DNA from: Candidatus Gottesmanbacteria bacterium RIFCSPHIGHO2_01_FULL_40_15
Lineage (GTDB): Bacteria; Patescibacteriota; Microgenomatia; 2-02-FULL-39-11
Length of the DNA stretch: 64,000 nucleotides
NCBI GenBank assembly: GCA_001779115.1
Contig: MFJF01000015.1
Span: forward strand, 86,491-150,490
Direction of reading: 5' to 3'
A model generated the notes under the pieces. The model had not been told where the DNA came from. It made no database searches and was given only the letters and a program-made list of their open reading frames with translations. Below, piece by piece: positions 4,222 to 26,300 of the stretch. The first letter of the stretch is position 1. Every line of letters begins with the position of its first letter. The translations under genes were made by a program, and so were the position numbers.

Positions 4222-5342
4222 AGAAAAATAAACGGTTCATACCGATAGCCTTTCCGGAAATAAGCGGCAATGAAAAATCATATCTGCTAAATTGCCTTAA
4301 ATCATCCTGGATTTCCTCAAAGGGTGAGTATATCGACAGATTCGAGGAGGATTTTGCCCGGTTCATCGGGAGTAAATATGCGGTATCCTCATCCAACGGT
4401 ACTACCGCCCTGCATTTGGCGTTGGTTGCTGCCGGTATCGGACCCGGCGACGAAGTTATTTTACCCGATCTGACTTTTGTGGCAACGGCCAATACCGTTA
4501 AATATACCGGAGCCGAACCGGTTTTAGTTGATGTTAACAAAAAAAGCTGGCAAATTAATACCCGTCTAATTGAAGGAAAAATAAATAAAAAGACCAAAGT
4601 GTTGCTGCCCGTTCATCTATACGGAATTCCTTCCGATATGAAAAAAATCATGGAAATTGCAAAAAAATACAAATTGACGGTTATTGAAGATGCAGCTGAA
4701 GCTCACGGTGCAAAAGTTATGATGGGAGATGTATCTTTTAAAATGGCCGGTTCGATAGGTTTAATGGGCTGCTTCAGTTTTTACGCTAACAAAATCATAA
4801 CTACCGGTGAAGGGGGTATGGTAGTAACTGATGACCGGAAAAAAGCGGACCTTATGAAAATGCTCCGTGACCACGGGCAGGATCCAGGCAGGCATTATTA
4901 TCATCCTTTAATCGGATTTAATTATAGGATGACTAATCTCCAGGCCGCCTTGGGAACAGCCCAACTTGAAAGAATTCAAAAATTACTTAATTTTAAATCC
5001 CGGATTGCCGCTCTTTACACCAATATGCTTTCAAAAGTTGCCGGTATTTATTTTCCGGAAATTCCGGCCGGAACAGAAGCCGTCTGCTGGCTTTACTCGG
5101 TTATTGTAGACAAGCCGTATCCTTTAAGCCGGGATGTCTTAATTAAGAAATTAAAAAACAGAGGTATTGAAACCCGGCCTTTTTTCTACCCCATGCACCG
5201 CCTGCCCGCCTATATTTCAGAAGAAAGTTTCCCCGCTGCCGATTATTTGTTCCATCACGGCATAAACCTCCCCAGCGGTTACAACCTAACGGAGGGTGAT
5301 ATCAAATATATTTGTGCTGTTATTAAATCATTTTCGAAATGA
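4218..5342 (+). CDS. DegT/DnrJ/EryC1/StrS-family sugar aminotransferase (copy 2)
   Basis: 374 aa with the same fold signature as copy 1 (GDEVILPDLTFVATANTV.Y.GA.PV.VDV; LLPVHLYG; IEDAAEAHGA). ATGA overlap with the upstream gene. Confidence 0.8.
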   Translation: MKKNKRFIPIAFPEISGNEKSYLLNCLKSSWISSKGEYIDRFEEDFARFIGSKYAVSSSNGTTALHLALVAAGIGPGDEVILPDLTFVATANTVKYTGAEPVLVDVNKKSWQINTRLIEGKINKKTKVLLPVHLYGIPSDMKKIMEIAKKYKLTVIEDAAEAHGAKVMMGDVSFKMAGSIGLMGCFSFYANKIITTGEGGMVVTDDRKKADLMKMLRDHGQDPGRHYYHPLIGFNYRMTNLQAALGTAQLERIQKLLNFKSRIAALYTNMLSKVAGIYFPEIPAGTEAVCWLYSVIVDKPYPLSRDVLIKKLKNRGIETRPFFYPMHRLPAYISEESFPAADYLFHHGINLPSGYNLTEGDIKYICAVIKSFSK

Positions 5343-6651: not shown

Positions 6652-8262
6652 TTAATTTATTTTATACAGGTAATAGCGGTTATTAAAAACTGCCGGAAGG
6701 GATCTGTAGAATACCGGAGAAACAATATAATCAGCTTTATATAGGCGGGCTAATGCGGTAATTGACGAAATGCTGTGGTTTTGATACCCCAGGATTATCT
6801 CTTCAAAAGAAATTTTATCCGCCGGGCATTTGGATATATTGCCCAATAAACACATCCGTTTATACCACTGGTAATAGTCTCCGGGATGAAATGGAAATGA
6901 TTTCCAGTCGGCTACAATGGCTCTTCCTGCCACCAGACGGAATTTTTCCAAATCAGGCGGAACCAAAAAAACAGCATCGGCAGGGGTATTTCCGCGGATA
7001 TATTCCTCAATTTCCGTTTCCTGGTCCCTGAACTGATAGTAGTTGGAAAAATTGAATTTCCCATGATATCGCCATAAGGAAAAATAAATAAGAAAAAGAG
7101 CTGTCAGAGCTGTTTTGCCGGTTCTGTTATAAAAAAGGATAAATAAAAATCCCAAAAAAACAGCTGCCAGCCCTGCTTTACCGCTGCCGGTTATTTTCCC
7201 GGCTACCGGCAGAAATACGGGAATAATGGCCAAATAGGAGGGTAGTTTATTGTTTTTTATCCCGTTAAAAATGACGGTTGTCAGTCCCGTCATCAGAAGC
7301 CAATATACATAAATTGTCAAACGGAATGGTTGCATAACCACCGGCAGGTAAAGGGGATAAAAATAGAGGGAAAAACTCCCCAGAATTATTAGAGCAGTAC
7401 AGATGGCAACAGCAGAATAAGTTAATATTTTAATTTTACCCGGCCAGTATCTTTTAAACTTTATAAATCCCAAAAGGGATATTGCCAAAAACAAAAAAAA
7501 CATAAGATAGTCGGCAAGGGGATAAGCCGTGGGCAAATAATGGTGCCGCCCGCGCATCATTGCCGGAATCTGGATCTTTAAAACACCTGGTATATTGTCG
7601 GCAGGCAGCGCACCGTATAAATAAATTAAAGGTATACAAATAATGAAAAAAGGTAATATACCCCGTTTTAATAAGTCCGGAATATTTTTTTTAAGACCCG
7701 TCACTGTTAAATAGACAAAGTAAGAAGTGTTAAAGATAAAAAACGATTCAAAACCGATAAGGGGATGGAAATAAGCTGAGATAATATACAAAAGGGAAGA
7801 TAACAGTATTTTATCCCGGAAAAGACATGAAATTGCCAAAAGCGAAAATGCCAATGACAGTTGGGTAACGGTAAAATCACCAGTCACCAGAATATTTCCT
7901 CCCAGGCTGAAGGTTTGCCCGAATAATATCACAATGACGGTTAGAATTGAGCTTAAATGGTCTTTGGCGATACTGTCCGATAGCTTATAAGTGGCTTGGG
8001 AAATAAGAAAAACGGTTACCACAAAATGAAAGAAAAAAATAACCGGCAAATTTGTAATTTGGTTTAGTCCGGCCATATAAACGGAAAAAAAATACCGCGG
8101 TCCGAATTTTGATGCCGTGTTAAGAAACCAGTCGTTGACCAAATAATTGCCGGAAATAAATCTTAGGATGATGGGGATCTGTTCATATTGGTTGCTTGAT
8201 ACAAAGGAATATTTATATAGAAAGGGGAATATCAGACTTAAAAAAACAATAGACCGAATCAT
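6652..8262 (-). CDS. Polytopic membrane protein with C-terminal soluble domain; candidate glycan polymerase (Wzy-like) or GT-C
   Basis: 536 aa with more than 10 TM helices and a roughly 130-aa hydrophilic C-terminus. It is the only minus-strand gene in the glycan locus and sits between two Wzx paralogs. The family could not be assigned by eye. Confidence 0.3.
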   Translation of the reverse strand: MIRSIVFLSLIFPFLYKYSFVSSNQYEQIPIILRFISGNYLVNDWFLNTASKFGPRYFFSVYMAGLNQITNLPVIFFFHFVVTVFLISQATYKLSDSIAKDHLSSILTVIVILFGQTFSLGGNILVTGDFTVTQLSLAFSLLAISCLFRDKILLSSLLYIISAYFHPLIGFESFFIFNTSYFVYLTVTGLKKNIPDLLKRGILPFFIICIPLIYLYGALPADNIPGVLKIQIPAMMRGRHHYLPTAYPLADYLMFFLFLAISLLGFIKFKRYWPGKIKILTYSAVAICTALIILGSFSLYFYPLYLPVVMQPFRLTIYVYWLLMTGLTTVIFNGIKNNKLPSYLAIIPVFLPVAGKITGSGKAGLAAVFLGFLFILFYNRTGKTALTALFLIYFSLWRYHGKFNFSNYYQFRDQETEIEEYIRGNTPADAVFLVPPDLEKFRLVAGRAIVADWKSFPFHPGDYYQWYKRMCLLGNISKCPADKISFEEIILGYQNHSISSITALARLYKADYIVSPVFYRSLPAVFNNRYYLYKIN

Positions 8263-8325: not shown

Positions 8326-9606
8326 ATGTCGCCAAAGATAAAGACATTCTTACCTGTTTTTTTCTCAGGCACCGCCAAAGATACCTATATAATTTTTACC
8401 GCCAACATTTTTACCTCATTTTTAGCGTTCCTTTATACCATTTTTCTGGCCCGGGCTTTTGATCCCCGGCTGTTGGGTATTTTTTCAGCCGTTACCGCAT
8501 TTATTCTTTTGACTTCAGATGTTCTTGATCTGGGAATCTCTGCATCCCTGTCCCGTTTTTATCCGGAAATAAAACGTAAAAGGGGAGAAGGAAACGCTTT
8601 ATCTTTTGCCGTTAATTCCTTCAAATTCCAACTCACCTTGACAATTGCCGTTATCCTTTTGATAATTATAACTTCCACAAATCTGGCTAATATTTTTCTG
8701 GAAGATTACCGCTTTTATTACCTTTACCTCCTTTCGGCTGCCGGAGTTTTGGGAACGGTTTTGACCGCCTTTGCCTCCGCTCTTTTGGCAGCCCGAAAAA
8801 AATTTATTGCCGTAGCCGTCATAAGCGTTACTTCCACTTTGACTAAACTGCTTCTTCTGGTATTACTTTTTTATCTCAACCGTTTTATCCTGTCTCTGGT
8901 TCTTCTCGCTTTCGTGGTTGCTTCATTTGTTGCTTTTTCTGTCTCTACCCGGTTTTTAAAACTGGCGCTTTTTAGGGATAAATTCAGCTTTATGGAATTA
9001 AAAAAACTTCTCTCATACTCCCTTTTTATTGCCTTATCCCGTATATTTTCCGCGGTATCGGGCAAGCTTGATGCTTTGATGCTTATTCCTCTTTCATCAG
9101 CTTTCGATGCCGGTATTTATTCCGCTGCCTACAAAATTGCCTTTACCTATATTCTTTTGGCCGGCAGTTTCAGTACTGTTATTGCTCCCAGACTGGCTTC
9201 ATTTAAAGATGTCGGACTGTCGCTTCCATATCTTAAAAAAATAATCCTGGCAACTATGCTGATACTTTTGTCTATGGTAGTCTTATATGCTGTCGCTCCG
9301 TTTTTTGTCGTCTTTATCCTTGGCCGCCGGTATGTTCTTTCTGTTGATGTATTCCGGTCTCTTCTGTTGCCGACCGCTCTTTTTGTCATGACTATTCCAT
9401 CAGTCAATTTTCTTCTTTACGTTCTGAAAAAACCCTGGGTATCAACATTCAATACTTTTATCTCTCTGGTAATCATGTTTTCCGGTAATTTATATTTCAT
9501 TCCGGCATTCGGGAGGTTCGGTCCTGTCTACAGCCTGACGGGAGCTTACGGATTTACCCTGATAAGCTCGGTATTCTTTGCCGTTTATTACTATTCAAAA
9601 TCATAA
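8326..9606 (+). CDS. Wzx-like oligosaccharide flippase (paralog 2)
   Basis: 426 aa with about 12 TM helices and N-terminal architecture parallel to the 5339 gene (AKDTYIIF.AN.....AF.....LAR.......G.FSAV..F.LL.SD.LDLGIS). Confidence 0.6.
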   Translation: MSPKIKTFLPVFFSGTAKDTYIIFTANIFTSFLAFLYTIFLARAFDPRLLGIFSAVTAFILLTSDVLDLGISASLSRFYPEIKRKRGEGNALSFAVNSFKFQLTLTIAVILLIIITSTNLANIFLEDYRFYYLYLLSAAGVLGTVLTAFASALLAARKKFIAVAVISVTSTLTKLLLLVLLFYLNRFILSLVLLAFVVASFVAFSVSTRFLKLALFRDKFSFMELKKLLSYSLFIALSRIFSAVSGKLDALMLIPLSSAFDAGIYSAAYKIAFTYILLAGSFSTVIAPRLASFKDVGLSLPYLKKIILATMLILLSMVVLYAVAPFFVVFILGRRYVLSVDVFRSLLLPTALFVMTIPSVNFLLYVLKKPWVSTFNTFISLVIMFSGNLYFIPAFGRFGPVYSLTGAYGFTLISSVFFAVYYYSKS

Positions 9607-10448: not shown

Positions 10449-11999
10449 ATGAAAATCCGTCCAATAATAATATATCCGTTTCTTATTGCCTTTTATCCCG
10501 TCATTTTCGCCTACGCTGAAAATATTAAAGGTCTGATACTTCCTGAAGTATCCCTGCCGCTGTCTGTATCTTTCTTTCTGACATTAATGCTGTTTCTTTT
10601 GGCTAAAATCGTTTTCAGGGATTGGTATAAGGCAGGCATTGCCGCTGCAATTATAATTATTGTCATTGAAAATTATATACTTGGTTTTGACTTTGTCAGA
10701 AAGACTGTCTTAGATCAATTTATCAAAGGCAAGCATAAATTCGGATTTCTGGTGGTCACAACAGGTCTTTTGATCTTTTTATATTTTTTAAGAAAATCAA
10801 AACAGCGTTTCCGGTTATCCGCATCCATATTGAATGTTTTTTCAGTTATATTGATCTCTTTACCTGTTGTTCAGATTGCCGTATATGAGATATCTAATAA
10901 ATCGCCCACTATAAATGCAGTTACTCTGCCTAAACTGGAAAAGAATGGCCATCCCCAAACCGGGGAATTGCCGGATATTTATTACTTCATATTAGACAGA
11001 TACGGACAAAATAAAACAATCAGCTCAAATTACGGTTATGATAATTCTGTTTTTATTAAATCCCTGGAGAAAAAAGGATTTCATATTGTGTCTGACAGTT
11101 GGTCGAATTACACAACAAGCGCACTTTCACTGGCCTCATCTTTAAATATGAGTTATCTGGACAATCTTGCCCAAAATCCGGGTATTAACTCGGCGGATGA
11201 AAAAATTCTTTTGAAACTGATAGAGAATAATCTCGTTGTAAAATTTCTCAAAAGTATGGGATACAAATATATTCATGTCGGATCATGGTGGAATGCAACG
11301 GCAAAAAATAAATATGCCGACAGAAACATCAAAGGCGCTCTTGCTTTATCCGAATTATCTCAAGTCATTTATAGCCGGACTATTTTTTATCCGATTACGG
11401 TTAAGCTGAAAGTGCCTCTTTTAGACGGCCGCTATGCTCAATTTATAAGAATTCCTTCCCAGTTTTCCGAGATTGCCAATATTCCTAAAATGAAAGAGCC
11501 TACATTTATTTTTGCTCATTTTCTTATTCCTCATCCTCCGTATGTCTTTGATAAAGACGGAAATTTTATAACTGAGGAAGAAGAAAATAAAAGAAGCGAA
11601 AGGGATAATTACATCGGCCAATTGGAGTACGCGAATAAAAAAATACTCGAATTGGTAAATACATTATTAACTTCCGCAAAAGACAATAAGCCCATTATTG
11701 TCATTCAGGGTGATGAAGGACCGTATCCCGGGGAATATCTCAAAAACAGCCTGAAATATGACTGGAAAAAAGCCGGTGATGATATTATTCAGCAAAAAAT
11801 GGGAATACTAAACGCGATATATTTTCCCGATAGCCGGTATGAATCTTTTTCTCCGGTGACTTCACCGGTCAACTCCTTCAGGATTGTATTCAACACCTGG
11901 TTTAATCAGAAACTCGAGCTATTACCGGATATAAGTTTCCTCTCTAACGTCGGAAAACCTTACGATTTTGTGAAAAAAATCGAAAGAAATCAGAAATGA
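10449..11999 (+). CDS. LtaS/sulfatase-family (alkaline-phosphatase superfamily) membrane phosphotransferase, paralog A
   Basis: 516 aa with five N-terminal TM helices followed by an extracytoplasmic domain. That domain carries 'PDIYYFILDRYG' and 'FAHFLIPHPPYVFD' motifs typical of LtaS/EptA-type sulfatase-fold phospho-headgroup transferases. Confidence 0.6.
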   Translation: MKIRPIIIYPFLIAFYPVIFAYAENIKGLILPEVSLPLSVSFFLTLMLFLLAKIVFRDWYKAGIAAAIIIIVIENYILGFDFVRKTVLDQFIKGKHKFGFLVVTTGLLIFLYFLRKSKQRFRLSASILNVFSVILISLPVVQIAVYEISNKSPTINAVTLPKLEKNGHPQTGELPDIYYFILDRYGQNKTISSNYGYDNSVFIKSLEKKGFHIVSDSWSNYTTSALSLASSLNMSYLDNLAQNPGINSADEKILLKLIENNLVVKFLKSMGYKYIHVGSWWNATAKNKYADRNIKGALALSELSQVIYSRTIFYPITVKLKVPLLDGRYAQFIRIPSQFSEIANIPKMKEPTFIFAHFLIPHPPYVFDKDGNFITEEEENKRSERDNYIGQLEYANKKILELVNTLLTSAKDNKPIIVIQGDEGPYPGEYLKNSLKYDWKKAGDDIIQQKMGILNAIYFPDSRYESFSPVTSPVNSFRIVFNTWFNQKLELLPDISFLSNVGKPYDFVKKIERNQK

Positions 12000-13075
12000 A
12001 GATCGCTTTCATAAATATTTATCAGGGTCTTGCCTATAGGGGAGCGGAGCGCAGTACCGAAGAGCTCTGTTTACGATTAGGTGTTCAAAATAGAATTACT
12101 CTAATTTCTGCCGGAAACACCAACGTTCCGGAAAAAGTAGAAAAAATAAAAATCCCGATATTACTTCCTTACCTTCCTGATAGTTCATTCTCCTTCTTTC
12201 GCCGTTTCTATCTGGATTTATGGAGTCTGCAAATCTTAATATTTACACTTCGCTGTCTGCCTTATCTTTTAAAGAGAAATTTTGACATCCTTATTCCCGT
12301 TAACGGGGGATGGCAGACGGTAATTATCAAATTAGTCACAAGAATAAAACGGTCCAAAATGGTAGTTATTGGCCGGGCCGGTATCGGCCGGGATGATGCC
12401 TGGAATTTACTGACCTGTCCTGACCTTTTTATTGCCCTGACAGGAAAAGCGGAAAAATGGGCCGGAAAAATTAAACCCGGTGTCAAAATTGTCAGGATTC
12501 CTAACGGTATTGATCTTGAAAAGTTTCACCCCCGGGTCAAACCGGTCAAGTTAGATCTGCCCCGGCCGGTCATTTTGGCTGTTTCTGCCCTGACGGAAAA
12601 TAAAAGGCTGAAATTGACAATAAATGCCGTTGCCGCCATGGAAAAACCTGTTTCACTACTTATCGTCGGCCGGGGTCCTCTAAAAGAAAGTCTACAGAAT
12701 CTGGGCCGGCAGCTTTTGGGACGGGACAGATTTATGATAACTCAAGCCGGGGCGGAAGATATGCCGGCCTTTTATACCGCCGCCGATATCTTTACCATGG
12801 TATCGGTTGACACTGAAGCTTTCGGTAATGTCTATCTTGAAGCACTTGCCTGTAATCTGCCTGTGGCGGCGCCGGATGACGAAAACCGCCGGGAAATAAT
12901 AGGCCCGGCCGGTCTCTATTGTGATCCCCGTGATCCCCGAACTTATGCTCAGGTTCTGGAAGAAGCATTATCGAGAAATTTAGGCAATATTCCCCGGTCC
13001 CGGGCGGAACAATTTGATTGGAAAAGGATTATTAAAAAGTATGATAAAGTGTTAAAACAACTCATGAAAAGATGA
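11996..13075 (+). CDS. Glycosyltransferase family 4 (GT-B, group 1)
   Basis: C-terminal EX7E-type motif 'EAFGNVYLEALACNLPVAA'. ATGA overlap with the upstream gene. Confidence 0.7.
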   Translation: MKIAFINIYQGLAYRGAERSTEELCLRLGVQNRITLISAGNTNVPEKVEKIKIPILLPYLPDSSFSFFRRFYLDLWSLQILIFTLRCLPYLLKRNFDILIPVNGGWQTVIIKLVTRIKRSKMVVIGRAGIGRDDAWNLLTCPDLFIALTGKAEKWAGKIKPGVKIVRIPNGIDLEKFHPRVKPVKLDLPRPVILAVSALTENKRLKLTINAVAAMEKPVSLLIVGRGPLKESLQNLGRQLLGRDRFMITQAGAEDMPAFYTAADIFTMVSVDTEAFGNVYLEALACNLPVAAPDDENRREIIGPAGLYCDPRDPRTYAQVLEEALSRNLGNIPRSRAEQFDWKRIIKKYDKVLKQLMKR

Positions 13076-13794
13076 AATTATCGATTATCATCCCGGTTTA
13101 CAATGAGGAAAAAACAGTGGGTAAAGTACTGGATAAAATATGCCGCCAGCCCCTCAAATGGAGCCGGGAAATAATTATTATCAACGACGGGTCAACCGAC
13201 AACACCAAAAATATTATTAAATCTTTCCTGATAAAAGCCGAAAAGGAAAAATATCAGGTTAAAGTAATAAATTTTGATAAAAATTACGGAAAAGGTAAAG
13301 CGGTTTCATCTGGCATAAAAAAAGCTACCGGCAACTATATTCTTATCCAGGATGCCGATTTGGAGTACGATCCTGCCGATATTCCCGCAATACTAAGCGC
13401 TGCCGGCCGTGTCCTTGAAAATAAAAATAAATATGTCAGTGTTGCTGTTTACGGCAGCCGGTTGATGAAAAACCCCGTTAATATGCCGTATCTTTATATA
13501 ATGGGCAATAAATTTCTGACAGGGTTAACCAACTTCATATTCGGTACCCGCCTGACGGATATGGAGACAGGTTACAAACTTCTCCCTGCCGGACTTATCA
13601 GAAAAATGCCTCTGATATCAACCCGCTTTGATTTTGAACCGGAAATTACCGCCAGGCTGATAAAAGCGAAAATTCCAATAATCGAAGTGCCTATTTCATA
13701 CCGGGGTAGAACCCATTTGGCCGGTAAAAAATTAACTGTCAGAGATTCAATCGGTGCTTTAAAATGCCTGATTTATTTTCGTTTTTTCACTTGA
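13072..13794 (+). CDS. GT2 polyprenol-phosphate sugar synthase (Ppm1/DPM1/GtrB-like)
   Basis: 240 aa with the 'LSIIIPVYNEE...IIIINDGSTDNT' and 'IQDADLEYDP' motifs characteristic of dolichol/polyprenol-phosphate mannose (or glucose) synthases. Confidence 0.65.
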   Translation: MKLSIIIPVYNEEKTVGKVLDKICRQPLKWSREIIIINDGSTDNTKNIIKSFLIKAEKEKYQVKVINFDKNYGKGKAVSSGIKKATGNYILIQDADLEYDPADIPAILSAAGRVLENKNKYVSVAVYGSRLMKNPVNMPYLYIMGNKFLTGLTNFIFGTRLTDMETGYKLLPAGLIRKMPLISTRFDFEPEITARLIKAKIPIIEVPISYRGRTHLAGKKLTVRDSIGALKCLIYFRFFT

Positions 13795-13806
13795 ACAAAA
13801 AAGCAA

Positions 13807-15216
13807 ATGAATAAGCTTTTGCTGATTTTTCTGATAGTAGTAGGCAGCGCCTATTCCGTTATTGCCGTTGCCGCTCACTATCAGTTCCGGACTTTCGGTT
13901 GGGATTTGGGATATTTTGACCAGATAATCTGGTTATTAAGCCGCGGATTCTACCCTTTCAGTACTTTAAATAAGGTGAATTTTTTAGCCAATCATTTTTC
14001 ACCGGTTCTTATATTCTATGCTCTGCTTTACCGGATCCATTCTTCTCCGGTAACCCTTCTCATATCCCAGGCTTTTTTGGTCGTTTTTTCCTCGTACCCC
14101 CTTTTTCTCTTGGTCTGGGAAAAAACGGGCAGCCGGCTTTTAGGAATGGCCGTAGTTATTTCTTTTCTGTTTTTTATCGGTACCCAGTGGAGCATACTCA
14201 ATGAATTCCATGAAGCGACTTTAACCCCGCTGTTTCTGTCGCTTTTTTTCTTTTCTGCCGGCATAAAAAAAAGGAAGCTGATTTTCCTTTTTTCAATAAT
14301 CGGCTTACTTGTTACCAAGGAAGAATTTGCGCTTTTAACAGCCGCCCTGGCTTTCCCTTTGTATTTTTATTACGGGCTAAAAAAACAGGCGGTTATTCTT
14401 TTTCTGTTTTCCCTGTTTTTTTTCTTTTTCCTGACTCAATTTTTCATGCCGGCCATATCGGAAAAAGGTGTATACCAGCATGCTCATTTGTCACCAGAAG
14501 CCCCATCACCCTGGGAACTGACCTTAAAAATCTTGACTGATCCTGTATATATCCTTAAAAGTTTCCTTTCTCCGCCGGTAAAAATTCAGACTCTTTTAAT
14601 CAGTTTTTCTTCATTTGCATACTTGCCGCTTTTTGCCCCGTTTTCCGTTTTAGTTCCGGTTATCGAGCAATTTCTGATGCGGTTTCTGTATACCGGACCG
14701 CAGTTTACTGTTTTTACCAATGTCAACCATCATGCCGCTCCGATTGCCGTTCTTCTGCCCGTTTCCGTTGTTTTTGCGGTGGTGCGTCTTATGAGCCGGT
14801 TCCCCCGTAAAAAAAGATTCATCCTTTTGTCTTCATCCCTTTTAATTTTAGTTGCCAGTGTGTTTCAGGATATTATTCAAAAAGCGCCTTTTCATTCCAT
14901 TGTTAAACCGGCTTTATATCAGGAGTCGGAGTGGCAAAAAAACGCCGGGAATGCCTTAAAACAAGTGCCCTTAAACAGTTCCGTTGCCGCCCAAAACAGC
15001 CTTTTTCCCCATTTATCGCAAAGAAAGGAAATTTATCTCCTACCCGAAACAGGCAATGCCGATTTTCTGGCGGTTGATTTAAGTGACGGGCCTAATAAAT
15101 TCTCTCCTCTTAATCTGCAAAAAACCCGAGTTTTAATTTATGAGTTGGAGGAAAAAAATATATACCGGGTTTATTTCCGGAAAGGCGATGCCATTATTTA
15201 CCGGAAAGTAAATTAA
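13807..15216 (+). CDS. DUF2079-like polytopic membrane protein (putative GT-C)
   Basis: 469 aa, polytopic, with the N-terminal 'FRTFGWDLGYFDQIIW...ANHFSPVL' signature that resembles DUF2079. This family is commonly paired with GtrB/Ppm1-like GT2 genes. Confidence 0.5.
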   Translation: MNKLLLIFLIVVGSAYSVIAVAAHYQFRTFGWDLGYFDQIIWLLSRGFYPFSTLNKVNFLANHFSPVLIFYALLYRIHSSPVTLLISQAFLVVFSSYPLFLLVWEKTGSRLLGMAVVISFLFFIGTQWSILNEFHEATLTPLFLSLFFFSAGIKKRKLIFLFSIIGLLVTKEEFALLTAALAFPLYFYYGLKKQAVILFLFSLFFFFFLTQFFMPAISEKGVYQHAHLSPEAPSPWELTLKILTDPVYILKSFLSPPVKIQTLLISFSSFAYLPLFAPFSVLVPVIEQFLMRFLYTGPQFTVFTNVNHHAAPIAVLLPVSVVFAVVRLMSRFPRKKRFILLSSSLLILVASVFQDIIQKAPFHSIVKPALYQESEWQKNAGNALKQVPLNSSVAAQNSLFPHLSQRKEIYLLPETGNADFLAVDLSDGPNKFSPLNLQKTRVLIYELEEKNIYRVYFRKGDAIIYRKVN

Positions 15217-15269
15217 ACGCTTTTTGCCAAGTATTATAAGCCGAGTGTAAAATACGCGTTAAACAAATA

Positions 15270-15929
15270 ATGATTGATGTTAAGAAACTATATGATACCC
15301 GTTTTACTTCCTTTGAAAGGATAAGGAAAATTGAATTATGGAGGATTTTATGTCGCCGGTTTCTCCAGCAGTACATTAACCGGAACGGATCGATCGTTGA
15401 TCTGGGAGCCGGCAATTGTGAATTTATTAATAATATTGAATGCCGGGTAAAATACGCGGTTGATATAAATGACGATCTTAAAAAAAAAGTAAAAAAAGGC
15501 GTTCGCGTTAAAATTGCTCCGGTTAAAAAACTGAAAAATCTTTTTCCCCATAATTCCGTTGATGCAATATTTATGAGCAATCTGTTGGAACATCTGGACA
15601 GCAAGGAAGACGTCTTCAGACTGTTAAACGAATCTTTTGCCGTCCTTAAAAAGGGCGGCCGGTTACTGATCATGCAGCCGGATATCGCCCTGGTTGGTGA
15701 TTCATATTGGGATTTTTTTGATCATAAAGTTCCCATCACTTTTGCCAGCCTTTCGGAAGTGCTTGTGACCGTAGGTTTTAAACTGAGAAGTTACCGCTAT
15801 CCTTTTTTGCCTTATTCAACCAAAGTCAAATACCTGCCGCTCTGGCCGCCGTTTTTGAAAATTTATCTTTATTTAAGGCCGCTCCATTATTTTTTCGGAA
15901 AACAGTTTTTTATCTGCGCTGAGAAATAA
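15270..15929 (+). CDS. Class I SAM-dependent methyltransferase
   Basis: Motif I 'IVDLGAGNCEF' and the post-II/III region 'LKKGGRLLIMQPD'. Confidence 0.6.
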   Translation: MIDVKKLYDTRFTSFERIRKIELWRILCRRFLQQYINRNGSIVDLGAGNCEFINNIECRVKYAVDINDDLKKKVKKGVRVKIAPVKKLKNLFPHNSVDAIFMSNLLEHLDSKEDVFRLLNESFAVLKKGGRLLIMQPDIALVGDSYWDFFDHKVPITFASLSEVLVTVGFKLRSYRYPFLPYSTKVKYLPLWPPFLKIYLYLRPLHYFFGKQFFICAEK

Positions 15930-15930
15930 T

Positions 15931-16746
15931 ATGGATATTTCCGCTTGTCTGGTCATAAGAAATGAAGAAACACTCCTGGAAAAAAGTCTGGAGAGCCTCA
16001 AAGGGATTGCTGATGAAATAATTATTGTGCATGACGGGCCATGCAATGACCGCAGTCTTATTATTTCCCGAAAATTTGGAGCTAGGGTGTTTGTCAGAAA
16101 ATTTGTCGGTGAAGCGGAATACCACCGGCCTTTTTCCTATGAAAAAGCAAAAGGGGATTGGATTTTGCAGATTGATGCCGATGAATATCTGCCGTCTTCC
16201 AAAAAAAATTTAATCAGGAAATTAACCGGCAGCAAAACTTGTGACGCCTACAGTTTTGCCTGGCCTTATCCGGATGAAAAAGGGTATATCGGCAAAGGAC
16301 CTTTTAGCCAGACATACAAACCTTGCCTTTTTCAAAAAGAAAAAATGTACATGCTCGGTCTCTCGCATGAATATCCCCGGACTTATGGAAAGATATGCCG
16401 AATTTCGAAAATCCAATTATTCCACCCGCCCCGTTTTGATAATTATTCCCTTAAAGTTTTTAAAACCAAGTGGCGCCGGTGGGCAGCTATTCAGGCTGAA
16501 CAAATAAAAAATATAGAGAATCTGCCCCGGTTCAATATGGGCGGGAATAACCATCTTTCTAAACATTATGGATATATAATAAAACACCCGTTTATAAGCG
16601 GTATTAAGGAATCTTTTAAATTTTTACTGCTTTATATATCAAGAGGCATTCTTTTTTCCGGAATCAGAAGTTATAAAATTGCTTTTTTTGAAATCTGTTA
16701 TATCTGGCTGGTCAGATTTTATACATTAAAATTTAAAAAAGGTTGA
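15931..16746 (+). CDS. Glycosyltransferase family 2
   Basis: 'ISACLVIRNEE...IIIVHDGPCNDRS' and 'QIDADEYL' (DxD) motifs. Confidence 0.6.
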   Translation: MDISACLVIRNEETLLEKSLESLKGIADEIIIVHDGPCNDRSLIISRKFGARVFVRKFVGEAEYHRPFSYEKAKGDWILQIDADEYLPSSKKNLIRKLTGSKTCDAYSFAWPYPDEKGYIGKGPFSQTYKPCLFQKEKMYMLGLSHEYPRTYGKICRISKIQLFHPPRFDNYSLKVFKTKWRRWAAIQAEQIKNIENLPRFNMGGNNHLSKHYGYIIKHPFISGIKESFKFLLLYISRGILFSGIRSYKIAFFEICYIWLVRFYTLKFKKG

Positions 16747-17447
16747 AAATCATGAATGAATATAATCAAAAAAGAATCAATCCGCCATTCTGGCAGCACG
16801 ACTGTCACATATTAAAAAGGCTTTATCGTGAAATTAAAATTGAAGTGCACCGGTGGGTTAATAAAAATTCTGAGGTTTTGGATTACGGTTGCGGCCCGGC
16901 TCCATATGAACATTTATTGACCGGACGATGTTCCCGCTATATTAAATTGGATATCGGAAAAAACAACTCGGCTGATATCCTTGTCCTGGAGAACGAAAAA
17001 ATTCCTCTGCCTGATTCGTCATGGGACGTGATACTTTCAACCCAGGTATTGGAACATGTGGCTGACCCCGGTTTTTACCTGTCTGAATGCCGCAGACTCT
17101 TAAAACCCGGCGGAAAACTGATATTGTCTACCCACGGCATCTGGCCCTATCATCCGTTTCCGGAGGATTATTGGCGCTTCACGGAATCAGGGCTTAAAAA
17201 AATATTGCGTGATAACCGGTTTAAGACAGTCAACTTTAAAGGACTTATCGGGCCGTTTGCTTCATCCGTCCAGTTCACTGTATTATTATTGGCAGACTTT
17301 CTTGTTAAAAAGCCTTTCCCGGCCAAATTGATTCTGGTTCTTTTATCAGTTATATCCAATATATCAATTTCAGTTTTAGACTCAATTTTTCCTTACCGTA
17401 AAAACAGTGATTCAAGCCTTTATTTTCTATGCGCCGAAAAATACTGA
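16743..17447 (+). CDS. Class I SAM-dependent methyltransferase
   Basis: Motif I 'VLDYGCGPAPY' and 'LKPGGKLILSTHG'. The C-terminal tail is hydrophobic. Confidence 0.6.
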   Translation: MKIMNEYNQKRINPPFWQHDCHILKRLYREIKIEVHRWVNKNSEVLDYGCGPAPYEHLLTGRCSRYIKLDIGKNNSADILVLENEKIPLPDSSWDVILSTQVLEHVADPGFYLSECRRLLKPGGKLILSTHGIWPYHPFPEDYWRFTESGLKKILRDNRFKTVNFKGLIGPFASSVQFTVLLLADFLVKKPFPAKLILVLLSVISNISISVLDSIFPYRKNSDSSLYFLCAEKY

Positions 17448-18820
17448 TCGGAATTATTTTTACCGGCCTCATATTGAGGTTTATCGGCCTCAACCAGAGT
17501 TTTTGGCTGGATGAAGCCGCTCAGGTAATTGAATCGGAAAGAGTTTTTGCCCAACAGATTGATTTGGCTTCTGATTTTCACCCGCCGCTTTATCACTTAC
17601 TGCTTCATTTTTGGCTTAAAATCGGAAACGGTGAAATATTCTCTCGGCTGCCTGAAGTTATAATGGGAGTTGTCAGTATTTTTTTGGTTTATGAAATTAC
17701 CCGCCTTTTAAAATTCAGCAATTTTTCCGCTCAATTAACCGCTTTTCTTTTGGCCGTCAATCCCTTTCATATTTATTATTCCCAGGAAGTCAGGCCATAC
17801 ATGCTGTTTAGCTTCCTATCACTGTTAGCAACCCGTTTTTTTCTGACCGGCAATTTAATTGCCCTGGCAATTGTTGTTTCCCTCTTGGTCTATACCAATT
17901 ATTTTGCGTTCTTTCTTCTTTTGGCATTTCCTGCCGCATCCCTTTTGTCCGGATATAAAAAAGACTTGAATAAAGTTTTACAATCATTTTTCTTGGCGTT
18001 TCTGATATTTTTGCCTTGGCTGCCTTCTTTAATGAGGCAATTGGAAATAGGTTTCGGAAACGGATTGCCCGGTTGGAAATCAGTTGTTTCGGTTTCCCCG
18101 TATAAGGCGATTCCTTTGATTTTAGCCAAGTTTATCTTCGGTAAAGCTTCAATTGATAATAATTTCATTTACGCACTGGTCCTTATGCCCTCCATCATTG
18201 CTTTTGCCGCCAGTGGTTTTCTTGCTTTTAAAAGTAAAAAATACCCTGTTTTGTTTATGCTTTTCTTCGTCCCTTTGATTTCAGCTTTGACAGTTTCATT
18301 TTTTCTGCCCGTTTTAGCTCCGCAAAGAATGATTTTTTTGTTGCCTTTTTTTCTGATGATAATTGCCGGATCGGCTGACATCTGGAAGAAATGGGGAATA
18401 TTTTTATCACTGGCAGTTGTCATCACTTCTCTTTTCGGCCTGATGCTTTATTATTTAAACGCGCGCTTCCAGCGGGAAGATTGGCGATCATCCGTGCAAT
18501 ATTTAAAAGAAGACTCATACTCAATAAAAAGTTTGGTGGCATTTGCTTTTCCGGAAGCTTTCGCTCCTTTTATCTGGTATAACCGGGGTATTCTGGAAAG
18601 TCGCGGTTATGCACAGGATTTCCGGGTTGGGCAGTCTGACATCCGGAGACTGAGTCTTGATTTATCAGGCAGGAATACGGTTTATTATTACAGTTACCTT
18701 GACAATCTGACTGATCCCAAAAATTGGATACAGCGTAAAATAAACGAAAACGGTTTCCAGTTGAAAAGTATCAGGGATTTTCCCGGAGTCGGTTTTGTCT
18801 ATAAATATGAAAAAGACTGA
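17429..18820 (+). CDS. GT-C family membrane glycosyltransferase (GT39/GT83 ArnT/PMT-like)
   Basis: 463 aa, polytopic, with the first-loop 'FWLDEAAQV' acidic DE motif diagnostic of PMT/ArnT-type glycosyltransferases. Confidence 0.6.
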   Translation: MRRKILIGIIFTGLILRFIGLNQSFWLDEAAQVIESERVFAQQIDLASDFHPPLYHLLLHFWLKIGNGEIFSRLPEVIMGVVSIFLVYEITRLLKFSNFSAQLTAFLLAVNPFHIYYSQEVRPYMLFSFLSLLATRFFLTGNLIALAIVVSLLVYTNYFAFFLLLAFPAASLLSGYKKDLNKVLQSFFLAFLIFLPWLPSLMRQLEIGFGNGLPGWKSVVSVSPYKAIPLILAKFIFGKASIDNNFIYALVLMPSIIAFAASGFLAFKSKKYPVLFMLFFVPLISALTVSFFLPVLAPQRMIFLLPFFLMIIAGSADIWKKWGIFLSLAVVITSLFGLMLYYLNARFQREDWRSSVQYLKEDSYSIKSLVAFAFPEAFAPFIWYNRGILESRGYAQDFRVGQSDIRRLSLDLSGRNTVYYYSYLDNLTDPKNWIQRKINENGFQLKSIRDFPGVGFVYKYEKD

Positions 18821-22476: not shown

Positions 22477-23388
22477 ATGGTTAAACGATATCTTCTTGAC
22501 GTTATTATTGTCAGTTTCAATACCGCCACCCTGTTACGGCAAGCCCTTCAGTCGGTCCAAACAGAAGTTGTTGAAAATAATATAAAGGAAGGGACCAGAA
22601 TTACAGTTATTGATAACGCTTCAACAGACGGCACTTCCCAGATGGTCAGGAAAAATTTTCCCGGCGTTTCGCTTATTGTCAATAATAAAAATACAGGCTT
22701 TGCCAAAGCTAATAATCAGGCTATCAGAAAAACCTCCGGTAAATATATACTACTTCTTAACAGTGATGCCATAGTCGGGAAAAAGGCAATTAATGCTCTT
22801 ATAAACGAGTTGGAAATAAATAGCAAAGCAGGCGGCTCCGGCCCGCGGCTCGTAAATTTTGACGGAGGTAATCAACCGTCTTTTGGGTTTTTCCCGACAC
22901 CATGGAGGGTCCTTTTTTGGATGCTGTTTATTGATGATATTAAATTCATTTCAGACTTTTTTAAGCCTTATCATGCCCGGCACGATTTTTTTTACCGCCG
23001 GAGGCGGACTGTCGACTGGCTATCCGGTGCCTGCATTTTGGTAAGAAGAGAAGCTTTTGAGAAGGCCGGTCTGTTTGACGAAAGTATATTTATGTACGGT
23101 GAAGAAGTTGAGTTTTTTTATAGAATGAAAAAATCGGGTTTTGAAGCAATTTTTACCCCTAATGCAATAGTCCGCCACAAAAAAGGCGGATCAGGCAGAG
23201 GAACGGAAAGCGGAATTGTTGAAGAATATCTGTTCATAGTCCATTTTTACCGTATATATTTTCCCGGATTAGTAGTTCCTGTCAGGTTTTTGCTGAAGCT
23301 GGGAGCTTTGCTGAGAATGATCCTTTTTGCTATAATCGGGCCTACAAAAAAGGTATCTCTTTATGCCAAAGCTTTTAAGGTGGCTTGA
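22477..23388 (+). CDS. Glycosyltransferase family 2
   Basis: 'DVIIVSFNTATLL...TVIDNASTDGT...LLLNSDAIV' GT-A motifs. Confidence 0.7.
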   Translation: MVKRYLLDVIIVSFNTATLLRQALQSVQTEVVENNIKEGTRITVIDNASTDGTSQMVRKNFPGVSLIVNNKNTGFAKANNQAIRKTSGKYILLLNSDAIVGKKAINALINELEINSKAGGSGPRLVNFDGGNQPSFGFFPTPWRVLFWMLFIDDIKFISDFFKPYHARHDFFYRRRRTVDWLSGACILVRREAFEKAGLFDESIFMYGEEVEFFYRMKKSGFEAIFTPNAIVRHKKGGSGRGTESGIVEEYLFIVHFYRIYFPGLVVPVRFLLKLGALLRMILFAIIGPTKKVSLYAKAFKVA

Positions 23389-26300
23389 TGACCGCCTGTT
23401 GTTTCTTTTCGCCGGTTTTTTATTGGCTTTTATTCCCCTGTATCCCAAATTACCGCTATTGGATGTTCTGCCGGGGTATATTGTCCGAATCAGACTGGAA
23501 GATATTCTTATAGCCGGATGTTTTGTTCTTTGGCTGATTTACCTGTTGCGCCGGAAAATAACCCTTTCCGGTAATCCTCTTTTAAAGCCGATTGCCGGAT
23601 ACCTGGCAGTCGGACTACTTTCAATAATATCGGCAATTTTTGTCATCAGGACAATTCCCCAGGAGTCTCTCCATATACAGAAATCCCTGCTCCACTTTTT
23701 CCGCCGGGTGGAATATTTTTCCCTTTTCTTTATTTTCTTCACTTCCGTAAAAAACATTAAACAGATTAAAACCTATCTGATAATCCTTATTGTTACCGCC
23801 CTTTTGGTCTCGCTTTACGGATTCGGACAGAAATATCTTTATTGGCCGGCATATTCGACCATGAACAGGGAGTTTGCCAAAGGCTGGCAGCTTTACCTCA
23901 CCGAGCACGCCCGGGTTCTGTCCACTTTCGGAGGTCATTACGATTTGGCCGCTTTTGCCATGATGATGCTTATAATTCTCTGGAGTCTTTTTTTCGGTTT
24001 GAAAAACCTGTTTTGGAGATTACTGGTATTGCCTGTATTGGCGGTTGTCTTCTGGACTTTAATTCTGACGGCCTCCCGCACTTCTTTTATCGCCTATTTG
24101 ACAGGACTGATACTGATGTTCTTCTTTTGGAGCTACAAAAAAGGCATTTTTTGGGCAATCTCGCGCTATCTGATTGTAAGCTTTACCTCAATTATAATTA
24201 TGCTGTCATTCGGCGACCTCTCGGAAAGATTTACCAAACTGTTGCGCATTGACCAGAGACTGTTAACCTTTTCACGGATTCTCAAATCCCCAATTGGTAA
24301 ACCTCCGGGGGATAAAGCTCTTTTTCTTGAGAATAATCCGCAGGCGGCTTTATCGGAAATAACTTCTAAAAGTGACGCGCCGCCCAAATTGGCGCGCCCG
24401 TCGGATGTCTTCGAAGACATTCCCCTGGTAGTAGAAAAAAACGGATCGAGATCGGCTGTTAAAAGAACTTATTCCCAAACAGCTTTTATGTATGACCTCT
24501 CAACAGCCATCAGGTTTGACGCTCTCTGGCCGATGGCTATAAAAGGTTTTGCCAAAAATCCGCTTCTCGGGAGCGGCTATGCCACTCTTAATAAATCTAA
24601 TCTGACTGATTTTACCGAAGCCGAATCAACTGATAACGATTTCTTGAGAAGCTTGGGGGAAACGGGAATACTGGGATTTGCTTTCTTTTACGGAACACTC
24701 CTCTTTATAGTATTTTACCTTTGGCGCAGTATCGAAGTGCTTAAAGATCCGCTGATTTTCGCATTTATCGCCGGATTTGCCGGATTGCTGTCAGGACTTC
24801 TGGTAAATGCGGTTTATATCGATGTTTTTGAGTCTTCCAAAGTCGCACTTTCCTTCTGGGCATTAACCGGCATTACTCTGTCGGCGGTAAAAATAGCCAG
24901 GACAGGCAAGGGGAAAGTTTTGGAAAAACCCAGACTGGCTGATCTGGATAAGTTTATTACCGGTGTTAAATCAGCAGTTAAAAAGATAATCACAAGCCAT
25001 TATTTTTACCTTTTTTTAATAATGGTTTTGGCTTTTTCCCTTAGATTGTACCGGATAAAAACACCGTTGGCCGATTGGCATTCCTGGCGCCAGGCCGATA
25101 CGGCCAGTGTCTCCAGAAATTTTATTAAACAAGGAATTAATGTACTTTATCCGACATATGACGATCTTTCCAACGTCGCTTCAGGTTATGATAATCCTAA
25201 AGGCTTAAGATTTGTCGAATTCCCCGTTTACAATGTGGTTCATGTATTTGTTGATCAGTTAATTACCGGGTACGATCTGGTTATCAAAGGCAGATTGACA
25301 TCCGTTATTGCCTCTCTTTTTTCCTGTCTTTTTCTTTTTCTTATTGTCAGAAAATACCATTCCGCCGCCGCTGCTTTTCTTTCTTCCTTCTTTTTCGCCG
25401 TTATACCCTATAATATTTTTTTCAGCCGTGTTATTCTCCCCGAACCTTTACTGGTGGCTACCAGTCTGGCTATGGTTTATTTTTTCGACAAGTGGCTCGA
25501 AAAAAAGTCTTTAAGCCGAATGTTACCCGCGCTTATATTTTCCGCTCTTTCCCTTTTGATAAAACCTTTCGCGGCCTTTCTGTTTTTACCCATGATTTAT
25601 CTCTGGTTTATTCGTTTTAGGTTTAAGGCCGGTTCAGTTGCCGGACTGTTATTGTTTATGGCAGCGGCCAGCCTGCCCCTTTTAATATGGCGGTGGTGGG
25701 CCGGTCATTTTCCCGAAGGAATTCCGGCTAATATGTGGCTCCTTAATGGTGACGGTATCCGTTTTAAGGGAGCCTTCTTTTATTGGCTTTTTGCCGACAG
25801 GTTAGGCAGGCTTATTCTGGGATATTTCGGTTTGCCGCTTTTAGTATTTGGAATTCTGGCGGAAAAAAACAGGGAAGGGCATTTATTTAATATTTGGGGT
25901 CTGTCCATGCTTTTATATATAACGGTCTTTGCCACGGGTAATGTCCGTCATGACTATTATCAGGTTCTCACCATACCGGTAATAACAATTTTTCTTGCTA
26001 AAGGGGTATTATTTTTAATTAGTCAGAATAAAAATTTGTCCGGCCGTCTCAAAGTGTACGCCATTCTAATTGTCCTTTTTATTTTCATGGAAATGTTCGG
26101 TTGGTATTTTATCCGGGATTTTTACAATATTAACCATCCGGAAATAGTGGAAGCCGGCCGGGCGGTAGAACTGAAGACTCCGGGTAACTCGCTTGTAATC
26201 GCTCCCTATAACGGCGATACCGCTTTTCTGTTTCAGACTCAGCGTGCCGGCTGGCCGGTTATGGAAAAATCAGTGGAAGAAATGATCGGTATGGGCGCAC

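Follow-up and report, generated by a model that had tools for sequence, protein, structure and literature searches.

How a glycosyltransferase with no transmembrane (TM) helix comes to lie in frame with a membrane protein of the DUF2079 family, and what the two might do together, is the question raised by a locus of Candidatus Gottesmanbacteria bacterium RIFCSPHIGHO2_01_FULL_40_15. In this locus, a glycosyltransferase of family 2 (GT2; 13072-13794, +) is followed at once by a DUF2079 protein (13807-15216, +). We analysed the locus within a stretch of 64,000 nucleotides (the window). An earlier note on this DNA had read it as a complete lipid-linked mannose branch, resembling protein O-mannosylation, that leads from GDP-mannose (GDP-Man) through polyprenyl-phosphate mannose (PPM) to mannosyl transfer outside the membrane. 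All the open reading frames (ORFs) named there are present on the + strand at the coordinates given here, including DUF2079 immediately downstream of the GT2 (PF09852 1.4e-49, same frame). The best explanation as a whole, which we hold with moderate confidence, is that GT2 and DUF2079 form a physical pair, one polypeptide in relatives and one in-frame TGA apart here, at the heart of a strain-variable side-branch cassette in a Wzx/Wzy-type cell-envelope glycan cluster; such a cassette would load a sugar onto a lipid carrier, methylate it and transfer it outside the membrane.

The two ORFs share one frame, and the junction between them (13792-13809, +) comprises the TGA of the GT2 (13792-13794), four codons (T K K Q) and the ATG of DUF2079. 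The four closest homologues of DUF2079 (P0122-P0125, 52-62% identity) are single GT2+DUF2079 proteins, and a syntenic Gottesmanbacteria locus (L001) likewise encodes the fusion, the fused proteins having 693-700 residues. Read-through alignment revealed that the residue opposite the TGA of the window is Trp (TGG) in four of the five fused relatives. Recoding of TGA (genetic code 4 or 25) was considered and ruled out, because TGA is the commonest stop in the window, terminating 28 of 54 ORFs, and the exact GT2 sequence of 240 residues (P0194, recorded for Candidatus Gottesmanbacteria RIFCSPHIGHO2_02_FULL) recurs on 21 contigs. For the same reasons the split is genuine, caused neither by recoding nor by a sequencing error. 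Moreover, unfused GT2 orthologues terminate in the same 'YRFF(N/T)' tail.

Queried exhaustively against 1.84 billion representatives, the fused protein also retrieved end-to-end GT2+DUF2079 fusions among distant proteins of only about 30% identity (P0332, 710 residues; P0435, 718 residues). The GT2 part of P0332 carries a different DXD motif, DADGSH rather than the DADLEY of the window GT2, which argues for independent fusion events. In addition, DADLEY GT2s are fused N-terminally to a PMT/PMT_2 GT-C enzyme of a DPANN archaeon (P0365, with 'HPDE' after the first TM helix, TM1) and to two other polytopic partners (P0412, 'SQDDFF'; P0450, 'HNDVAEY'). The layout of these fusions is constant, running from the cytoplasmic GT2 through TM1 into an acidic loop. 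It is these fusions in relatives, not proximity, that argue for a specific functional link; where a glycan cluster spans at least 48 kb and encodes more than 12 glycosyltransferases, the co-occurrence of such gene types is by itself unsurprising. That members of this GT2 clade operate together with GT-C enzymes is thus well supported by Rosetta-stone fusion evidence, and the simplest reading is that the clade would supply the lipid-linked donor of its GT-C partners.

The AlphaFold2 model of DUF2079, with a mean predicted local distance difference test score (pLDDT) of 93.2 and a predicted template modelling score (pTM) of 0.92, identifies it as a GT-C(A)-fold protein. Structural similarity search of the Protein Data Bank (PDB) using Foldseek retrieved DPY19, ArnT, PglB and STT3, all with a probability of 1.00 and template modelling (TM) scores of 0.49-0.58, whereas matches other than GT-C enzymes had a probability of 0.2 or below. 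Across 47 homologues down to 18% identity, Asp33 is invariant and Asp38 is conserved in at least 90%. Both residues lie in 'FGWDLGYFDQ', the first outside loop directly after TM1 (helix 2-25), and Asp33 is probably the catalytic acid of a predicted extracytoplasmic transferase. Its fusion to, or adjacency with, a GT2 resembling dolichyl-phosphate mannose synthase (DPMS) suggests that the enzyme would take a polyprenyl-phosphate-linked donor.

The GT2 itself (PF00535 2.7e-31) consists of 240 residues and has a GT-A fold with DAD at the DXD position, within the motif QDADLEYDP. It has no predicted TM helix; its membrane partner is DUF2079, which follows in the same frame here and is part of the same polypeptide in relatives. 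A single-sequence search of the PDB gave GtrB, ArnC and Pyrococcus furiosus DPMS as the best solved relatives, among which only DPMS matched over the full length. A profile built from the window GT2 and its orthologues from the candidate phyla radiation (CPR) (A4, 232 positions) matched DPMS with an E-value of 7.6e-34 over positions 1-211 of 232, spanning the interface-helix/acceptor region past the GT-A core; the GtrB match (93.7 bits) covered positions 2-167 and stopped there, and the ArnC match (88.7 bits) covered positions 2-206. No second full-length match to the GT2 family profile was found among the other ORFs of the 64-kb window. The GT2s at 9612, 15931, 22477 and 27593, as well as an extra GT2 of a related locus (L006), were examined as lipid-sugar synthases and set aside, their matches being generic, confined to the N-terminal half and with non-specific best hits. 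Altogether, the 13072 GT2 is most likely of the polyprenyl-phosphate sugar synthase type with a DPMS-like architecture, and its predicted product is a lipid-linked hexose.

Whether that hexose is mannose can be approached through the active site. The rival explanation that follows the earlier note most closely takes the GT2 as a mannose-specific Ppm1/DPM1 that uses the GDP-Man made by ManC, with DUF2079 and the GT-C enzymes at 17429 and 2668 carrying out protein O-mannosylation or the synthesis of a lipomannan-like polymer, as in Actinobacteria. It gains from DPMS being the best full-length solved relative, and from the resemblance of a TM-less GT2 with a split or fused membrane partner to mycobacterial Ppm1/Ppm2. 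In DPMS, Gln93 coordinates the metal, and His94, Lys178 and Leu69 touch the mannose (Gandini et al. 2017, PMC5526996). We mapped the contact residues onto the profile alignment from that structure description. The GT2 keeps Tyr10, Asn11, Glu12, Asp39, Gly68, Asp89-x-Asp91, Arg117 and Phe177; however, the DPMS signature DADLQH is replaced by DADLEY (Gln93 to Glu, His94 to Tyr), Leu69 by Lys, the same residue as in GtrB, and Lys178 by Asp, in addition to an A-loop about four residues shorter. These changes of the mannose and metal contacts are clade-wide: DADLEY occurs in all six close CPR orthologues and in 183 of the 206 motif-bearing clade sequences fetched. The bona fide DPM1/Ppm1 mannose signature (DADLQH, Leu69, Lys178) is found neither in the window GT2 nor in its CPR orthologues, and the GtrB-type features, the DADLQD motif and two C-terminal TM helices, are both absent from the 13072 GT2. 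The comparison of Ppm1 with GtrB, named beforehand as the refuting test, hence places the GT2 in neither type. Judged by these residues, it belongs to a distinct DADLEY clade, in which the DPM1-like architecture stands and the mannose assignment is not supported.

ManC (33976-35058, +) was rightly recognised as a mannose-1-phosphate guanylyltransferase. It has NTP_transferase and ManC_GMP_beta-helix domains, and its NCBIfam match to GMP_PMI (TIGR01479, 1.1e-67) covers positions 2-350 of 467, the GMP part only; the sole reason for a score under the bifunctional cutoff is that the protein has no PMI cupin domain. Its presence in the same operon-like cluster speaks for mannose. On the other hand, it lies 19 kb from the 13072 GT2, seven GT4s of the cluster could use GDP-Man, and ManC is one of several sugar-precursor enzymes in the cluster, beside three DegT aminotransferases, an SDR and an oxidoreductase. 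GDP-Man from ManC is a candidate donor of the GT2, not one that the active-site residues indicate.

The GT-C enzyme at 17429-18820 (+; 463 residues) also enters the mannose explanation. The ORF has no Pfam, NCBIfam or PDB sequence match of its own, and family profiles A1 (a wide DUF2079 alignment) and A2 gave nothing useful against the PDB, so that comparison of folds was needed. Its AlphaFold2 model (pLDDT 93.4), which ends in a small α/β domain, has Pmt4 as the top Foldseek match and also matches ALG12, ALG9, AglB and ArnT, with TM-scores up to 0.64. D28-E29 is invariant in 'WLDE' of loop 1. A PMT-style invariant DE together with Pmt4 as the top fold match favours protein O-mannosylation, as do a Ser/Thr/Pro-rich envelope protein nearby and the presence of many GT-Cs beside one synthase, like the shared use of PPM in mycobacteria. 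However, the enzyme is a diverged PMT_2-type GT-C: despite the invariant DE and the Pmt4 match it has no PF02366 or PF13231 match of its own, and most of those listed among its more than 1,600 homologues carry PF13231, not PF02366. Pmt1, Pmt2 and Saccharomyces cerevisiae Pmt4 align with the model over only about 240-280 columns, and Pfam finds no MIR or PMT_4TMC (PF16192) module in the protein. Since PMT_2 is a broad family that takes in ArnT-like enzymes, such a match implies neither mannose nor a protein acceptor. Finally, the 17429 GT-C is present in L001, L004, L006 and L008-L014 regardless of the DPMS-like GT2; by this distribution, the GT-C and the methyltransferase after it (MT_18795) belong to a conserved backbone and are not specifically served by the 13072 GT2. 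The second enzyme invoked, at 2668-4221 (+; 517 residues, 12 predicted TM helices), is a PMT_2-family GT-C above the Pfam cutoff (PF13231 3e-9; 37.7 bits against a cutoff of 26.1), and reads 'GMDQEYE' after TM1, a D-x-E with no literal DE.

A survey of neighbourhoods shows where the GT2/DUF2079 pair stands in relation to this backbone. It comprised 39 DUF2079 loci from GTDB species genomes, located with a narrower DUF2079 alignment (A3). Among the Gottesmanbacteria-type loci, five (L009, L010, L012, L013, L014) have an orthologous GT2 on the strand of DUF2079, 1.5-4.6 kb upstream of it, and in L016, on the contig that also gave L001, the two form a fusion. The upstream orthologues of the CPR loci score about 300 against the profile over the full length, and every CPR-type locus bearing the GT2 has DUF2079 (7/7). 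In four Chloroflexota loci, a full-length profile-matching GT2 starts directly after DUF2079; the GT2 of L036 has DPMS as its best solved relative (2.6e-11, full length).

Further comparison of the syntenic loci L001, L004 and L006 revealed a common backbone with 40-72% identity. It starts with a Wzx flippase, the GT2 at 9612 and the GT4 at 11996, and resumes with the 17429 GT-C and MT_18795, followed by two GT4s, an acetyltransferase, a GT2, a Wzy_C+PMT_2 fusion and onward; DUF6798 is also common to L001 and L004. The segment between the GT4 at 11996 and the 17429 GT-C is variable. In the window and L001 it holds GT2/DUF2079, a methyltransferase (MT_15270), the 15931 GT2 and another methyltransferase (MT_16743); in L004 it is without the DPMS-like GT2; and in L006 it is wholly missing, with an unrelated GT2 instead. 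In its variability, the unit of GT2, DUF2079 and methyltransferase is like the side-branch (seroconversion-type) modules known from polysaccharide loci. The likeness to protein O-mannosylation is not supported by this comparison, as the unit is a variable insert in a polysaccharide-type cluster, and the 17429 GT-C, with neither MIR nor PMT_4TMC, is kept where this GT2 is absent. What stands of the proposed pathway is a synthase feeding a GT-C, as the fusions and folds suggest; mannose is not supported. Weighing the altered contacts and the Wzx/Wzy context against the points in its favour, we judge the mannose explanation unlikely.

The three interleaved methyltransferases that the earlier note had reported are, by Pfam, indeed class I enzymes dependent on S-adenosylmethionine (SAM): MT_15270 (15270-15929, +; Methyltransf_11/23/25), MT_16743 (16743-17447, +; Methyltransf_11 2.4e-15) and MT_18795 (18795-19568, +; Methyltransf_11 1.3e-8, with a weak MftM-like match). 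A fourth interleaved gene had been overlooked: a second small GT2 of the ordinary GT-A type (15931-16746, +; 271 residues; PF00535 5.2e-9), of which only the N-terminal half matches the DPMS-like profile. It always lies just downstream of DUF2079, with orthologues in L001, L004, L008 and L009. MT_15270 is the best-conserved gene of the cassette, its orthologues being 66-76% identical; they directly follow the GT2 in L009 and L012 and the fusion in L001, so that GT2, MT_15270 and DUF2079 make a conserved trio in relatives. MT_16743 has a hydrophobic C-terminus (segment 186-215) and overlaps the start of the 17429 gene, which MT_18795 also overlaps; orthologues of the latter follow the GT-C in most relatives. 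Half of the sampled multidomain members of the DADLEY clade (10/20) are fusions of GT2 with a methyltransferase, in both domain orders. One of these (P0379) sits in a metagenomic operon unrelated to the window (L048, 1-13266), together with an MptA/B-family GT-C, a PMT-type GT-C, a 10-TM protein, a Wzx-like flippase, a GT2 and three further proteins of 10-11 TM helices, one with 'IWDEGRD' in loop 1; it is another system rich in GT-C enzymes and centred on the DADLEY GT2 clade. Conserved adjacency and the clade fusions thus support, by analogy and not by orthology, a tie between methylation and the lipid-linked branch, and MT_15270 is likely the sugar O-methyltransferase of this branch. The earlier suggestion of O-methylated mannose or other O-methyl sugars keeps its link to methylation, without support for mannose. 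SAM is cytoplasmic, hence any methylation has to precede flipping, with either the carrier-linked sugar or the nucleotide sugar as its target.

The same genes could be arranged differently. In a route like that of AglJ, the GT2 would charge polyprenyl monophosphate with a first sugar, the 15931 GT2 would extend it and the three methyltransferases would methylate it, after which DUF2079 or the 17429 GT-C would transfer the short lipid-monophosphate oligosaccharide en bloc. The model for this is the pathway of Haloferax volcanii, in which AglJ/G/I/E and the methyltransferase AglP act ahead of AglB. AglJ, a dolichyl-phosphate (Dol-P) hexosyltransferase, is indeed the top NCBIfam match of the GT2 over its full length, AglB and STT3 are among the fold matches of the two GT-Cs, and Haloferax provides a precedent for methylation on the lipid carrier. 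The tightly packed, overlapping gene order of GT2, GT-C, methyltransferase, GT2, methyltransferase, GT-C and methyltransferase would also suit such an assembly line, as would the fusions of clade members with GT4, GT2 and methyltransferase domains. However, the AglJ score of 94.8 bits is far below the cutoff of 325, and both DUF2079 and the 17429 GT-C are devoid of the STT3 WWDYG motif and of the STT3 C-terminal domain. Moreover, the parts of the cassette vary independently among relatives, a better fit to single-sugar decorations. En bloc transfer is accordingly in our view quite unlikely.

How the lipid-linked sugar would cross the membrane bears on the claim that the lipid-linked branch is complete. 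No GtrA match (PF04138) was found in window ORFs of at least 100 residues or among the genes of the 10 kb upstream, and to this extent the branch cannot be called complete. A multi-TM ORF of 125 residues at 61437, tried as a GtrA flippase, is a DAGK/undecaprenol kinase. Candidate flippases are the two Wzx-like proteins, at 5339-6646 (+; Polysacc_synt, PF01943 1.4e-21) and 8326-9606 (+; PF01943, PF13440), the latter adjoining the cassette in L001, L004 and L008, or else the synthase/GT-C pair itself. A Wzx-like protein, AglR, has been implicated in the flipping of Dol-P-mannose in Haloferax (PMC3871713), and P. furiosus DPMS (PfDPMS) has a GtrA-like TM domain for which a role in flipping the enzyme's product was proposed (PMC12992685), a domain that the window GT2 lacks. 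A glycan would be the most likely acceptor, as favoured by the context of a priming phosphoglycosyltransferase, many GT4s and GT2s, Wzx, Wzy_C and a variable cassette.

Several observations weigh against the reading of a lipid-linked side branch. Of the acceptor-phosphate triad of DPMS, Arg117 is kept in the GT2, whereas Tyr and Asn stand opposite Arg131 and Ser135, in a region where the alignment is less certain. There is no such GT2 within 6-10 kb of DUF2079 in L004, L008 and L015, nor within 6 kb in about 24 other, non-CPR DUF2079 loci; the pairing is frequent, not universal. The window methyltransferases have no relative in the PDB or NCBIfam that would point to a substrate, and the methyltransferase domains of the clade fusions are only 24-30% identical to them, a generic similarity. 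No dedicated flippase for the lipid-linked sugar was identified, and the Ser/Thr/Pro-rich LytR_C protein encoded nearby offers a possible protein acceptor. A search of a library of 8 million papers found no mention of DUF2079/PF09852 and nothing relevant on GT2-GT-C fusions or CPR GT-C clusters. Lastly, GT2+GT4 and GT2+GT2 fusions also occur in the clade and, like the GT2+methyltransferase fusions, could reflect ordinary cytoplasmic assembly-line enzymes.

That last point leads to a further explanation, in which the GT2 is an ordinary cytoplasmic transferase acting on a repeat unit linked to undecaprenyl diphosphate (Und-PP), the fusion only anchors it, and the GT-Cs are polymerases, ligases or transferases of Und-PP glycans. 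Fusions with GT4, GT2 and methyltransferase domains are typical of O-antigen assembly enzymes, and the Wzy_C+PMT_2 fusion of the cluster shows that GT-C modules can be joined to enzymes of Und-PP glycans; the apparently altered Arg131 and Ser135, and the many DUF2079 loci where no DPMS-like GT2 is near, point the same way. Against this, the DPMS/ArnC match takes in the region after the GT-A core, whereas the other GT2s of the cluster match in the N-terminal half only. Furthermore, fusion to the N-terminus of several GT-C families is repeated and specific, right before TM1 and the catalytic loop, and a second GT2 of the polyprenyl-phosphate type (DADGSH) has been fused independently to DUF2079. 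We consider an ordinary transferase very unlikely.

For the side branch, we propose the following sequence of steps. On the cytoplasmic face, the 13072 GT2 would use a nucleotide sugar to charge polyprenyl phosphate with a hexose, as its homology suggests, and MT_15270 may O-methylate the sugar while it is still cytoplasmic, consistent with conserved adjacency and the clade fusions. The lipid-linked sugar would then be flipped without GtrA, by either Wzx-like protein or by the GT-C itself. Outside the membrane, DUF2079, with Asp33 as the probable catalytic acid, would pass the sugar on, most likely to the polysaccharide that the other genes of the cluster assemble; both its donor and this acceptor are presumed. 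A bolder version makes DUF2079 an uncharacterised GT-C family that is a self-contained machine with its own synthase, the DADLEY hexose being O-methylated on the carrier and the donor possibly translocated by the GT-C, with no GtrA. This is a speculative and rather doubtful extension. If it were true, GT-C enzymes would have a new class of donor in lipid-linked O-methyl-hexose, and the synthase-GT-C fusions would be a minimal system for the membrane crossing of polyprenyl-phosphate sugars.

The flagged genes are part of a single glycan cluster, at least 48 kb long and with most genes pointing the same way, whose more than 12 glycosyltransferases include seven GT4s and five GT2s. A Bac_transf priming phosphoglycosyltransferase (35081-35740, +; PF02397 3.9e-60) is assigned to the initiation of the Und-PP-linked backbone glycan, and the Wzy_C (polymerase/ligase-type)+PMT_2 fusion (23363-26455, +; 1030 residues, by Pfam) to the core of its pathway. 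The latter has a 'WRQAD' loop and about 21 TM helices, and is the best-conserved protein of the cluster, with 61-69% identity in L001, L004 and L006. Besides these two, ManC and the two Wzx-like flippases, the window portion of the cluster contains two DegT aminotransferases, an acetyltransferase, DUF4012, a sulfatase-fold membrane protein, and DUF2142, PMT_2 and DUF6798 membrane proteins. It is followed by RecO, a class II aminoacyl-tRNA synthetase and dcw/peptidoglycan genes. Upstream, the cluster extends at least 10 kb beyond the window start (flank L046, 1-10000), with a PMT_2 protein of 763 residues, an SDR epimerase/dehydratase, a GFO/IDH/MocA oxidoreductase, an ATP-grasp protein, an AsnB-like amidotransferase-type enzyme, a HAD hydrolase, a GT4 and two methyltransferases. 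The homologues found for the cluster proteins belong to Gottesmanbacteria and Microgenomates (CPR/Patescibacteria).

Some other genes of the window deserve mention. The sulfatase-fold protein (10449-11999, +) has six N-terminal TM helices and resembles LtaS/EptA/GacH, which suggests decoration of the same glycan with a phospho-substituent (glycerol-phosphate or phosphoethanolamine); its orthologue in L014 adjoins the orthologue of the 29905 protein. The latter (29905-31317, +; 470 residues) is conserved, without a Pfam family and with only a faint methyltransferase-like signal, and the neighbouring protein (31310-32854, +; 514 residues) is likewise conserved and without a Pfam family, with four N-terminal TM helices. 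The DUF2142 protein (1113-2696, +), which reads 'FPDEQAH' after TM1, and the DUF6798 protein (6652-8262, -) are both polytopic and probably further GT-C-like enzymes. If the PMT_2 protein in the upstream flank is included, at least eight GT-C-like proteins of the cluster stand beside only one recognisable lipid-sugar synthase. Outside the flagged module, a GT-C-like protein (41707-43446, -; 579 residues) with nine TM helices, 'PFIFDD' after TM1 and C-terminal TPR repeats, a layout like TMTC/PMT_2, is convergent with the LytR_C protein (40092-41693, +), which has a Ser/Thr/Pro-rich linker ('SSPSLTPTPTQVPSVTPTPT') behind its TM helix; the two are plausible as a pair of protein O-glycosylation enzyme and acceptor. 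A Mur-ligase-like protein (57517-59133, +) combines the middle and C-terminal domains of that family with a hydrophobic stretch of ~175 residues (8 predicted TM helices) in place of the N-domain, and adjoins a DegT-like aminotransferase (59140) and a FemAB-family protein (60365). Recognisable Shine-Dalgarno sequences are nearly absent from the 20 bases that precede the gene starts of the window, and overlaps of 4-60 bases between adjacent genes are common.

Members of the CPR, uncultured and living as episymbionts or ultra-small cells, have a surface chemistry that is essentially uncharted; the eight or more GT-C-like enzymes encoded in a cluster that spans at least 48 kb show a heavy investment in extracytoplasmic glycan tailoring. 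The analysis also offers a testable function for DUF2079, a family spread across CPR, Chloroflexota, Actinomycetota, Cyanobacteria and archaea, and repeated fusions with methyltransferases and several GT-C families mark the large QDADLEY GT2 clade as a putative dedicated supplier of lipid-linked, possibly methylated, sugars. The flipping of Dol-P- and undecaprenyl-phosphate (Und-P)-linked sugars is a long-standing question, for which the GtrA-less synthase-GT-C fusions provide a compact system for testing self-sufficiency.

Compared to known systems, the cassette shares single features with several. Like ArnC/ArnT, it combines a predicted GT2 polyprenyl-phosphate synthase with a PMT_2-type GT-C, and its lipid-linked sugar may undergo chemical modification ahead of transfer; both DUF2079 and the 17429 GT-C have ArnT among their best structural matches. 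Unlike ArnC/ArnT, an Und-P-4-deoxy-4-formamido-arabinose (Und-P-Ara4FN) synthase with a GT83 enzyme, it has no ArnA, ArnD or ArnE/F, and the presumed modification is methylation, not deformylation. CPR bacteria have no outer membrane, so the acceptor would not be lipid A, unlike that of ArnT. The Agl pathway of Haloferax volcanii includes GT2 Dol-P-hexose synthases, a SAM methyltransferase acting on the lipid-linked sugar, AglR and a final extracytoplasmic transfer from Dol-P-mannose (PMC3871713). The cassette resembles it (AglJ, AglP, AglD, AglR, AglS) in its GT2 synthase, SAM methyltransferase and Wzx-like protein; however, the Agl pathway performs N-glycosylation of an archaeal S-layer, while the cassette has no AglB/STT3 orthologue and scores far below the AglJ cutoff. 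The type-III DPMS of P. furiosus (5MLZ) shares with the 13072 GT2 the GT-A core, the DAD motif, Arg117 and Phe177. They differ in the GtrA-like TM domain that PfDPMS possesses and the GT2 lacks, in DADLEY for DADLQH, in Leu69 and Lys178 of PfDPMS and, where the alignment is less certain, Arg131 and Ser135, and in the A-loop, which is about four residues shorter in the GT2. 

For the split and fused states of GT2 and DUF2079, the closest documented parallel is mycobacterial Ppm1/Ppm2. In Ppm1 (Rv2051c), a TM-less DPM1-like domain needs a membrane partner, which is fused or encoded by an adjacent ORF depending on the species (PMC3485146). Both systems also have one synthase of a lipid-linked donor beside many GT-Cs. 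However, the membrane partner of mycobacterial Ppm1 is not the consuming GT-C, the DPMS-type mannose-contact residues are not conserved in the 13072 GT2, and the organisms differ, a CPR bacterium with a Wzx/Wzy cluster compared to mycobacteria that make lipomannan and lipoarabinomannan.

The closest overall resemblance is to the three-component systems of extracytoplasmic glycosylation, namely GtrA/GtrB/Gtr* of Shigella and Salmonella, CsbB/GtcA/YfhO, Gml of Klebsiella and the pentofuranose systems (Kelly et al. 2024, PMC11127046). In these systems, as predicted here, a cytoplasmic GT2 charges polyprenyl phosphate with one sugar, which a GT-C adds outside the membrane to a glycan that is either complete or still nascent; like the seroconversion modules among them, the cassette is a variable module within a Wzx/Wzy-type polysaccharide locus. 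The differences are that the cassette is without a GtrA-family flippase, that its synthase has none of the two TM helices of GtrB and carries DADLEY instead of the DADLQD of the GtrB type, that its GT-C is the uncharacterised DUF2079, and that a methyltransferase belongs to the conserved trio. Overall, the cassette is best described as a variant of the three-component scheme, in relatives of which the synthase is fused to the GT-C itself.

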